From: a virus
Lineage: Duplodnaviria > Heunggongvirae > Uroviricota > Caudoviricetes
Length of the DNA: 5,929 bases
IMG/VR virus record: IMGVR_UViG_2690316115_000016
Strand: one strand, 5' to 3'
Part shown: positions 3,001 to 5,929 of the stretch, piece after piece
Position numbering within the stretch: position 1 is the stretch's first letter
Layout of the letters: each line of letters starts with the position of its first letter
Made by a program: the position numbers

Positions 3001-5929
3001 GCGCACACTGGTTGATGACAGCGGCAATAAAGCTCTGCGAATTGAGAAAAATAACAGCGCGAAATCCTGGTCAATGTACTGTGATATTGCTGCAGACAAG
3101 GCAAAACTTTTACTGGAAAAAGGCGGGGAAATTGCTGTCCGGTTTAAAATCCCCGAAAACGTCAATCTTGAGACAACCAGAAACAAGTATGCCTTTGGTT
3201 TGTACTGGCGAATAGCGGAATGGCCGGGTGAGGGTGGTGAAGGCCATCTGAGTTCTTTCTTTGTCCAGACAGATAAAGCCAGTATTAATGTTGCATACCA
3301 TCATACAGTTAATCAACAAAAAGAACTTGGCACGTTTGGCGCATTCGACCATGACTGGCATACGCTTGCATTTAAATTTAAGGGCAGTAACAGCATTAAT
3401 GTTACTCCGGTGCTTGATGGTGTGGATGGACAGGCGTTTGACCTGGTGAAATGGGCCAATACTGCTAATGGACTCAACAGGTTTGTCATTACGGATATTA
3501 CAGGTAGTGCAGAAACCTACCCTGTACTTATTGATACGGTGGAAGTTAAAGCAAACAAAGCTGGAGCAGCCGCATAATTGCTAAAAAAAGCCGCCAGCGG
3601 CAGGAATGGAAGCTGGCGGAGGTAATCCCAATGGAGAATGTAAAGAAAAGATGCTTTCGTACATTGGTTTTTTAAATGAAAACAATTCTCATTGTCAACC
3701 ATAACGGTAAGAAATTATGACATTTATTCATCAGGTGATGCTGTACTTCTGTACGGCGGTCTGTGTGCTGTATCTTCTTTCGGGTGGGTACAGGGCTGTG
3801 CGCGATTTCTGGTGCAGGCAGATTGATAAAAGGGCCGCTGAGAAAATCAGCGCCAGTCAGTCAGCCGGAAGCAAACCCGAAGAACCCGTTACTCCTTAAC
3901 AACCCCTTTCAGCGAGAAAATCCCATGTCAGAAATCACATCCCTGGTCACTGCAGAGGCAGTGAAGGAAGTCCTGCGCTCTGAAGAAGTCCGGAGCGCAC
4001 TGAAACAGAAACTTCGCCAGAATCTTGAGTCGCGTCTTGATGCAGAAGTGGATGCCATTCTGGATGAGCTGCTGGGCGTAGCAGCGGTTCCTGAGCCGGA
4101 AGGTATCGCGGGTGACGGGAGTGCTTCAGATGGCGGTGAACCTACACCTGACAGCGACATGATGATGTAAGCATGCGCAAGGGACCATCGGTGTGTGCCG
4201 GTGGTCTTTATATTGTTGTGAGCTTCCGGATTGCGGGAGACGGGGTATGTACCAGATGGAAAAAATCACAACAGGTGTGTCATACACCACGTCAGCGGTG
4301 GGAACGGGCTACTGGTTCCTGCAGTTGCTGGACAGGGTTTCCCCGTCTCAGTGGGCGGCAATAGGCGTGCTGGGGAGTCTGCTGTTTGGGCTGCTGACGT
4401 ACCTGACTAACCTGTATTTCAAAATCAAAGAGGACCGGCGTAAGGCGGCGCGGGGAGAGTAAGCTGATGAGCAGGAAATTCCGCTATGGTTTATCAGCGG
4501 TCGTTCTGGCGCTGATTGCTGCGGGCGCTTCTGCGCCTGAAATCCTCGACCAGTTTCTTGACGAAAAAGAAGGTAACCACACCACGGCATACCGTGATGG
4601 TGCGGGTATCTGGACTATCTGCCGCGGTGCCATCCTGGTGGATGGCAAACCTGTCGTTCCGGGCATGAAGTTGTCGAAGGAAAAATGCGACCGGGTTAAC
4701 GCCATTGAGCGTGATAAGGCGCTGGCATGGGTGGAGAAAAACATCAGAGTGCCACTGACCGAACCGCAGAAAGCGGGCATCGCGTCATTCTGTCCGTACA
4801 ACATCGGGCCTTCGAAATGCTTCACCTCAACGTTTTACCGGAAACTGAACGCAGGAGACCGGAAAGGTGCATGTGCTGAAATCCGCCGATGGATATATGA
4901 CGGCGGCAGGGACTGTCGGAACCGCTCAAATAACTGTTACGGGCAGGTATCGCGGCGTGACCAGGAGAGCGCGCTGGCGTGCTGGAGTATCGACAGATAA
5001 GCAGAATATTCTGCTGAAAAATGCCGTTGACCAACGCGAACGGATAACACGAAATCCTGCGAACTGGCAAAATTTAAGTGAGTAAAAGTAAAAACCCCGT
5101 TTGTTGGCAGCAAGCGGGGTTTTGTGTTTCTGACCTTGAATAAGGCAAGGGAGAAATTATGGGTAGGGAGGTTCTTTCCCTGTGAGGAAGTATAAAAGAT
5201 TCTTTCTGAGGTTGTCCATTATGAAAGGCATTGAGGTGGAGACGCCAGCAAGTCTGGATTTAACAAGAGCGGCAGCTTTTGCCATTCGTATTGTGGCAAT
5301 TGCTGTTCTGGTCTGGGCAATCCGTTGGTGGTGATATGAATCGTGTGCTGTATGGCGTGCTTATTGTCCTGCTGCTTGGTTGTGGATCGCTGTGGCTGGC
5401 AACAGACCATTACCGTGATAACGCCATCACCTACAAAGAGCAGCGAGATGATGCGAAGACAAAACTCAGCCAGGCGAACGCCACCATTGCTGACATACAG
5501 CAGCGCCAGCGTGATGTTGCTGCACTCGATGCCAGATACACCAGGGAGCTTGCTGATGCTAACGCGACTATTGAAAGTCTCCGTGCTGATGTTTCTGCTG
5601 GGCGTAAGCGCCTGCAAGTCGCCGCCACCTGTGCAAAGTCAACGACCGGAGCCAGCGGCATGGGCGATGGAGAAAGCTCAGGACTTACAGCAGATGCTGA
5701 ACTCAATTATTACCGTCTCCGAAGTGGAATCGACAAGATAACCGCGCAGGTTAACTACCTGCAGGAGTACATCAGGATGCAATGCCTCGATTAACAGAGC
5801 CAGCTCAATCGCTGGCCTTTTTTATGAGGTGAACCGCCCCGGGAATCCTGGAGACTAAACTTCCTGAGAAAGAGGTAAACAGGATGACTAAAAATACTCG
5901 TTTTTCCCCTGAAGTCCGTCAACGGGCAG

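Follow-up and report, generated by a model that had tools for sequence, protein, structure and literature searches.

A conserved small predicted membrane protein encoded beside phage lysis genes: DUF1378 as a possible accessory component of the lysis cassette

Several phages encode, together with their holin and endolysin, small non-essential proteins that affect the timing of lysis; RI and RIII of phage T4, LysA of P2 and LydB of P1 are examples. Here we describe a small gene found among the lysis genes in 5,929 nucleotides (nt) of viral DNA (Caudoviricetes; IMG/VR record IMGVR_UViG_2690316115_000016). This whole stretch, referred to below as the window, comes from a lambdoid prophage, of which it forms the late region. 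The gene is an open reading frame (ORF) of 60 amino acids (aa) at positions 3717-3899, it belongs to the DUF1378 family and it is followed by a gene of the DUF826 family. The membrane protein RI and the 82-aa cytoplasmic RIII of T4 are loosely like the pair formed by DUF1378 and DUF826. However, DUF1378 shares no sequence similarity with any of these regulators, RI acts through a periplasmic domain of which DUF1378 is predicted to have almost none, and LysA has several transmembrane (TM) segments. In size, in predicted topology and in having a TM segment that is more conserved than the tail, DUF1378 is also similar to phiX174 E, AcrZ and MgrB, which act on MraY, AcrB and PhoQ, respectively, although it is homologous to none of them. 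Moreover, DUF1378 is not a single-gene lysis protein, because a full set of holin, endolysin and spanins co-exists with it. We read DUF1378 as a late-expressed, optional accessory membrane protein of the lysis cassette, and put the probability of this tentative reading at roughly 40%.

The ORF at 3717-3899 is a genuine conserved prophage gene and its coding status is secure. Its size alone is not significant, since the window contains 68 ORFs of at least 30 aa. The product matches PF07125 (DUF1378) with E=1.1e-35 over profile positions 1-58 of 59 (122 bits, against a gathering cut-off of 25), which is its sole match in Pfam, and it matches PHROG 494 with E=5e-38. It coincides with RefSeq protein WP_000142783.1, annotated as "DUF1378 family protein", and its DNA is 100% identical to that of Escherichia coli FORC_069. 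Alignments, with column counts over 59 unique sequences, describe the members as proteins of ~50-85 residues that carry the core LYF[CS]TxV[CS]xLYLxxGG[YW] followed by basic residues, all of which the ORF possesses; compared with DUF1378, PHROG 494 and the RefSeq family it is a plain, full-length member without any difference. An earlier reading of the window from its sequence only had recognised no homologue and regarded the coding call as tentative. The former was wrong, homologues being abundant and annotated, and the latter is now strongly supported. The family is thus already catalogued, and as a sequence feature the window holds no surprise. Literature searches returned a single descriptive mention of the family, with no function assigned, and one further apparent mention is a typographical error for DUF1738. 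The product falls into no holin, spanin, defence or toxin family described so far. No NCBIfam model matched DUF1378, DUF826 or the holin, whilst a sequence search of the Protein Data Bank (PDB) with DUF1378 gave only noise (E ~0.5 to TRAP-gamma).

To follow the frame across relatives, 168 loci encoding 60 distinct proteins were gathered from the window, public genomes, phages and IMG/VR contigs. The reading frame is intact in all 168, so that the frameshifts and stops named in the sequence-only reading as what would tell against a gene are absent, and in 167 of them the start ATG coincides with profile position 1 or is only a few codons away from it. Purifying selection is evident from the ratio of nonsynonymous to synonymous substitution rates (dN/dS), which in pairwise comparisons is 0.16-0.27 over the divergence bins, and nucleotide diversity among close relatives is concentrated at the third codon position (0.061, 0.034 and 0.150 for positions 1, 2 and 3). 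In divergent loci the Shine-Dalgarno-like sequence is GGGAGG, GGAG or GGTAAG at unchanged spacing. Four proteins in which DUF1378 appeared to be fused to another sequence (P0131, P0126, P0226 and P0252) were rejected as natural fusions, being single rare frameshift or read-through variants.

It could be argued that this frame is no gene at all, either a chance frame in the leader of DUF826 and the holin or a shadow of a longer product running from a GTG at 3763 to 4170. The early annotations do list only this alternative-frame ORF, as L0106 in 933W and orf43 in VT2-Sakai, and PHROG 8301 was built on these; furthermore, in 59 of 61 unique regions the frame of DUF826 extends 45-70 codons without a stop ahead of its ATG and overlaps DUF1378. 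However, the intact frame, the dN/dS values and the codon-position pattern are all specific to the frame that starts at 3717. Homologues of DUF1378 down to 25-36% identity are found where no DUF826 follows, the Pfam model of DUF826 aligns over its full length (positions 1-75 of 75) starting from the ATG at 3925, and in some loci the open stretch upstream of that ATG is reduced to 5 or 29 codons. We therefore judge the long ORF to be an upstream extension of DUF826 and an annotation miscall, which explains the persistence of the open frame only in part, and the case against a gene is refuted for practical purposes.

DUF1378 is predicted to be a single-pass inner-membrane protein with its N-terminus outside and its C-terminus in the cytoplasm (N-out/C-in), because basic residues follow the TM segment (the positive-inside rule). 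The most hydrophobic window of 19 residues is residues 3-21, with a Kyte-Doolittle mean of 1.93. Across 60 unique family members the 15 residues past the GG[YW] motif have a mean net charge of +3.6, and the N-terminal flank has a charge of ~0, neutral to slightly acidic. The AlphaFold2 model, built on an alignment of 22 sequences, is a single helix over residues 2-50 with a disordered Pro-rich end (mean predicted local distance difference test score, pLDDT, of 73). Hydrophobicity, charge and model thus bear out the layout first proposed for the 60-aa product, one N-terminal TM helix followed by a basic tail. Only about 5 residues would be periplasmic. The conserved columns of the TM segment are L9, Y10, F11, C/S12, T13, V15, C/S16, L18, Y19, L20, S/A22, G23 and G24, and R29 in the basic helix is nearly invariant. 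The small residues at 12, 16 and 23/24 probably share one face of the helix. Constraint is strongest in the TM segment (dN/dS 0.18, rising to 0.24 in the juxtamembrane helix and to 0.55 in the tail), which suggests specific helix-helix contacts rather than a passive anchor. In being a small protein with a predicted TM segment encoded alongside an endolysin, DUF1378 shares general features with holins. It does not have the features of a spanin, its C-terminus being predicted to be cytoplasmic and no lipobox being present.

The most informative evidence on a connection with lysis comes from the neighbourhoods in which the gene is found. Neighbouring genes were labelled by iterated searches within the loci, Pfam scans, public annotation and precomputed Pfam hits, and the loci fall into 13 types of arrangement. 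In 11 of these DUF1378 lies in or beside the lysis cassette, which answers a question of synteny that had been raised from the sequence only. The most frequent arrangement, that of the E. coli lambdoid prophages (~140 loci), is nanS-p, DUF1378, DUF826, S21 holin, endolysin R and Rz. In a metagenomic virus (L167) the order is R, Rz, nanS and DUF1378, and in the P2-like prophages L179-L181 it is lysozyme K, LysB (DUF2570), LysC, nanS, DUF1378, gpR and gpS. Stenotrophomonas phages BUCT708 and BUCT709 have an S21 holin, an endolysin of the signal-anchor-release (SAR) type, Rz/Rz1 and then DUF1378, whose start codon overlaps the Rz stop codon as ATGA; the same overlap occurs in a Lonsdalea britannica prophage, where the preceding genes are a lambda-type holin, a lysozyme without a SAR segment and Rz/Rz1. 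A group of homologues of 79-80 aa follows Rz at a distance of -4 to +285 nt; the endolysins there are SAR-GH24, GH108-like or GH19-like (the last two as read by eye) and the holins are lambda-type or other. In L095 an S21-like holin, a SAR endolysin and Rz are followed by DUF1378 after 637 nt, and in Elizabethkingia phage EKP1 a class II holin, a lysozyme, Rz and one small hypothetical gene precede it. Locus L173 contains a PF11860 muramidase, DUF7940, Rz and DUF1378. In L174 DUF1378 stands between a fragment that we read by eye as the C-terminus of a lysozyme and a LysB-like DUF2570 gene, and in L175 and L007 it stands between a lysozyme gene, itself preceded by an S21-type holin in L175 only, and the gene of a 75-aa acidic protein.

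The two remaining types are found away from the lysis genes. In Mu-like prophages DUF1378 follows the tail fibre and tail-fibre assembly protein genes (and in one of them, L166, is preceded by DUF826), and close to the prophage's right end it is succeeded by a convergent gene for an acyl-/acetyltransferase and one for a Dam methylase. In Cedecea neteri the order is tail fibre, DUF1378 and Dam methylase.

The position of DUF1378 in the cassette and the families of the holin, endolysin and spanins therefore all vary, and closeness to the lysis genes is retained. Together with the placement in late operons, such closeness through rearrangements is what would be expected of an accessory lysis factor. 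Two narrower roles were dropped on the same evidence. A role specific to SAR endolysins does not agree with the Lonsdalea lysozyme, which has no hydrophobic N-terminus, nor with the GH108-like, GH19-like (both read by eye) and PF11860 enzymes elsewhere, and a role specific to pinholins does not agree with the lambda-type holins of L005, L090, L091 and L093. Overlap of the DUF1378 start codon with the Rz stop codon was seen in five loci and implies translational coupling of DUF1378 to a lysis gene. In the window, a crude consensus scan for sigma-70 only found no promoter-like sequence on the plus strand between pR' (889-916) and DUF1378. Scans of the same kind likewise found none on the plus strand directly upstream of DUF1378 in L154, L166 and L005.

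On this basis the only transcript to carry DUF1378 would most likely be the late one that starts at pR', depends on Q and also covers DUF826, the S21 pinholin, the SAR endolysin and Rz/Rz1. The conserved TM helix of DUF1378, lined with small residues, would make contacts within the inner membrane, whether between copies of the protein, to one of the phage's lysis proteins or to a membrane component of the host, and the protein may in this way tune the timing or efficiency of the membrane step that is triggered by the holin. In E. coli phages the acidic cytoplasmic DUF826 is its candidate partner. The part in lysis that had been suggested from the sequence only is thus supported indirectly by the recurrent placement in lysis cassettes, the lack of a detected upstream promoter and the five overlaps with Rz, and any effect on timing is inferred. 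More broadly, DUF1378, with DUF826 in E. coli phages, might represent an unrecognised class of lysis accessory across Proteobacteria phages that sets when lysis occurs or how complete it is, irrespective of the holin, endolysin or spanin family, a generalisation that we consider doubtful.

The distribution of the gene in genomes bears on these proposals. Of 5426 complete E. coli genomes, 1018 (~19%) contain DUF1378 by blastn, at 2672 places in all and with a median of 3 copies per carrier genome. DUF826 is present at 2709 places in 1052 of the complete genomes, which is nearly equal, and the S21-type holin at 8848 places in 2452. In phage records, tblastn identified DUF1378 in 309, chiefly phages that convert their hosts to Shiga toxin (Stx) production. 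A search of 5.8 billion proteins gave 122 relatives, every named one of which is from Escherichia or Shigella. A profile search of 1.84 billion cluster representatives (50% identity) found 42 clusters only, and the family is therefore small; the search of the whole cluster-representative library revealed no link to a characterised family.

Several of these observations weigh against an accessory role in lysis. Comparison of the 2672 places with the 8848 S21-type cassettes shows that the DUF1378-DUF826 pair is present at only ~30% of them in E. coli, and DUF1378 is therefore optional. Prophages PP2 and PP5 of E2348/69, a strain of enteropathogenic E. coli (EPEC), which are otherwise similar, run from nanS-p to the holin without DUF1378. 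The Mu-like and Cedecea copies follow tail-fibre genes and have cargo (acyltransferase or Dam methylase) but no lysis gene as neighbours. No lysis protein family is constant across the contexts, and so no specific partner can be named; a partner, if there is one, is either generic (the membrane, DUF1378 itself or a host protein) or lineage-specific. The DUF1378 protein matches no holin family in Pfam. Finally, the regions before the holin and after Rz are classic insertion spots of morons, so proximity to lysis genes could reflect the landing of cargo.

The main rival explanation follows directly from this last point. DUF1378 would be a cargo gene (moron) independent of lysis, its product binding or modulating a host membrane protein in superinfection exclusion or at a transporter or sensor, and it would land at borders that tolerate insertion. 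We consider this unlikely, yet a good deal of the evidence is compatible with it. In E. coli DUF1378 occupies the moron site between Q and S beside nanS-p, itself a moron. Elsewhere it follows Rz, the position at which bor is located in lambda and annotated in 933W, and the right-end region of the Mu-like prophages and the Cedecea context, with their acyl-/acetyltransferase and Dam methylase genes, are cargo surroundings too. The gene is optional, it accompanies nanS-p in three architectures, and modulators such as AcrZ and MgrB are typically tiny proteins with a conserved TM helix. In addition, the superinfection-exclusion proteins HK97 gp15 and T4 Imm are, like DUF1378, small inner-membrane proteins encoded at cargo positions. 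These two are, however, made from the prophage or early in infection, whereas DUF1378 lies in late operons and in several phages is apparently coupled in translation to Rz. Autonomous morons are flanked by a promoter and terminator of their own, and the crude sigma-70 scans detected no such promoter in any context covered. Against cargo in general stand this result, the ATGA overlaps with the Rz stop codon, and the placement in L174, where the endolysin fragment precedes DUF1378 and the i-spanin gene follows it, and in L175, where DUF1378 comes straight after the endolysin; both positions are inside the cassette and not at its border. Superinfection exclusion, also put forward in the sequence-only reading, fits the optional, cargo-like position and otherwise poorly, because expression confined to the late phase would be of little use and the predicted periplasmic part is so short; PADLOC defence-system models gave no match at E up to 1 with five DUF1378 members or DUF826.

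The nanS-p-type esterase and DUF1378 occur as a pair in other surroundings, after LysC in the P2-like prophages L179-L181 and after Rz in L167. The pair therefore moves between unrelated phage types.

An accessory role, were it correct, would bear on the release of toxin. Roughly a fifth of the complete E. coli genomes carry DUF1378, many of them more than once, and so do most sequenced Stx-converting phages, where the gene has the toxin/nanS-p region on one side and the lysis genes responsible for toxin release on the other. A lysis accessory in Stx phages would influence when and how much Shiga toxin is released. Should DUF1378 tune lysis, a new factor modifying phage burst and the release of toxin would have been identified, and an extra component in the scheme of holin, endolysin and spanin; otherwise DUF1378 simply joins the other conserved cargo genes of phages. 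New here are its recurrent yet position-flexible association with lysis cassettes in unrelated phages and its tight pairing with DUF826 in E. coli.

This pairing deserves closer inspection, since DUF1378 had been placed directly upstream of the holin and the DUF826 gene in fact intervenes (Table 1). In E. coli DUF826 almost always co-occurs with DUF1378, and the gap between the two is steady at 19-40 nt. The AlphaFold2 model of DUF826 has helices at residues 10-17 and 20-49 (pLDDT >90 for 20-49) followed by a disordered acidic tail, and a PDB sequence search with it returned only E >1. A third account of the locus is that DUF1378 serves chiefly as a membrane tether for the acidic DUF826, the two forming a module with some other late function such as sequestering or delivering a cytoplasmic factor. 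The near one-to-one co-occurrence with a fixed short spacer would suit this, as would the opposite charges of the basic DUF1378 tail and DUF826, the recovery of the pair in reversed order in the Mu-like L166, and the small acidic protein of ~75 aa that follows DUF1378 in L175 and L007. But most homologues outside E. coli have no DUF826 nearby, the acidic neighbours in L175 and L007 have no detectable homology to DUF826, and conservation is strongest in the TM helix and not in the tail that would hold the partner. We regard a tether as improbable, appreciably more so than cargo.

The DUF826 sequences consist of an N-terminal helical part of ~50 residues, a variable, acidic and Pro-rich tail and a conserved MMM/MML C-terminus. 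The acidic proteins that follow DUF1378 in L175 (4184-4414) and L007 (567-794) are rich in Ala, Glu, Pro and Val; they are alike to DUF826 in composition only (hhalign probability <1%; BLASTP). The 79-80-aa homologues of DUF1378 carry a similar Ala/Glu/Pro-rich extension on the same chain.

The spacer upstream of DUF1378 contains signals for a transcript on the minus strand. A perfect -35 box, TTGACA (3698 to 3693), and an A-rich -10 box predict a start near 3662, and the transcript would end near 3584 at a terminator hairpin followed by U7. The TTGACA box is invariant in six divergent loci. As it falls in the DUF1378 leader on the opposite strand, the sRNA (small RNA) promoter accounts for the conserved "TTGTCAA" in that leader. 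PasA and PasC of EPEC E2348/69 are Hfq-dependent sRNAs of 79-85 nt, encoded on the minus strand between the sialate esterase and the next gene (PMC8550237 Table S6; a further source is Zhu, Shabalina and Storz, bioRxiv 2026). By place, orientation and size, the element at 3584-3698 matches an sRNA gene of the PasA/PasC family. A northern probe for EcOnc33, an sRNA of enterohaemorrhagic E. coli, has a match in this spacer of a related locus type. Rfam matched nothing between 3578 and 4250.

An sRNA in this place recalls type I toxin-antitoxin systems, and a toxin-like peptide had been among the functions proposed from the sequence only; DUF1378 would then be a membrane toxin restrained by the antisense sRNA upstream. 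Like Hok, Ldr and TisB, DUF1378 is small and hydrophobic and has the gene of an antisense sRNA directly before it, and the sRNA (3584-3662) would be complementary to the stretch of late mRNA lying 55-133 nt ahead of the start codon. The ldr/rdl and tisB/istR systems have a comparable layout of toxin and sRNA. However, PasA and PasC of E2348/69 follow nanS-p without any DUF1378, and in other phages DUF1378 comes directly after Rz or a lysozyme gene without the sRNA. Each of the two is thus found without the other, and we therefore reject this idea as very improbable. Further differences from the type I toxins are that the sRNA is clear of both the ribosome-binding site and the coding sequence, ending 55 nt before the ATG and leaving the start of translation uncovered, and that no dedicated promoter for a separate toxin mRNA was found.

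The features of the window are collected in Table 1. Its stretch from 3578 to 4250 agrees at every position with the E. coli FORC_069 chromosome (100% identity), where the gene order is that of the window. Neither an stx gene nor a tRNA gene was found in the window.

Table 1. Positions of DUF1378 and the surrounding late-region features in the window. E values are for the Pfam families named; aa, amino acids; TM, transmembrane.
Feature	Position	Strand	Remarks
Q antiterminator	ends 901
pR'-like promoter	889-916	+
Terminator	946-967
nanS-p, sialate O-acetylesterase	1667-3577	+	Upstream neighbour; domains DUF1737, SASA, DUF6645
sRNA gene and promoter matching the PasA/PasC family	3584-3698	-	Fills most of the nanS-p/DUF1378 spacer
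Shine-Dalgarno-like GGTAAG	3706-3711	+	5 nt 5' of the ATG
DUF1378 coding sequence, 60 aa	3717 (ATG) to 3899 (TAA)	+	PF07125, PHROG 494
Codons of predicted TM helix, residues 3-24	3723-3788	+	Most conserved part
Codons of predicted basic juxtamembrane and cytoplasmic helix, residues 25-50	3789-3866	+
DUF826 gene, 81 aa	3925-4170	+	Acidic, predicted cytoplasmic; PF05696, E=3e-44
S21-type pinholin	4247-4462	+	Dual start, Met1 and Met4; PF04971, E=7e-33
GH24 endolysin, SAR-type	4467-5000	+	Hydrophobic N-terminal segment MSRKFRYGLSAVVLALIAAGASAP; PF00959, E=5e-25
Rz, i-spanin	5336-5794	+	PF03245, E=8e-37
Rz1, o-spanin	5556-5741	+	Inside Rz, +1 frame; lipobox LLGVSAC (by translation)

Other elements of the window were noted in passing. 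A 13-bp hairpin followed by a T-rich tract (4180-4209, plus strand) separates the stop codon of DUF826 from the start codon of the holin. It may serve as a terminator or attenuator or, as a structure, affect which of the two holin starts is used. Within the 335-nt spacer between R and Rz, which in 933W holds an ant gene, an ORF of 37 codons with a hydrophobic C-terminus (5221-5334, plus strand) stops 2 nt before the Rz start codon and is listed in RefSeq as the hypothetical protein WP_000675931.1. Lastly, the region between pR' and nanS-p encodes the sRNA STnc100 at 1240-1445 on the plus strand (RF02076, 165 bits, E=3e-38). Convergent with it is a minus-strand terminator at 1473-1452 (GCCCGCGTCTCCCAGCGCGGGC followed by T6), which would close an element of ~1446-1530 on that strand and resembles the 3' end of an EPEC prophage sRNA from the E2348C_1409/1408 intergenic region. 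The pair formed by STnc100 and the minus-strand element fits the convergent "anti-sRNA" arrangement downstream of pR' (Tree et al. 2014).

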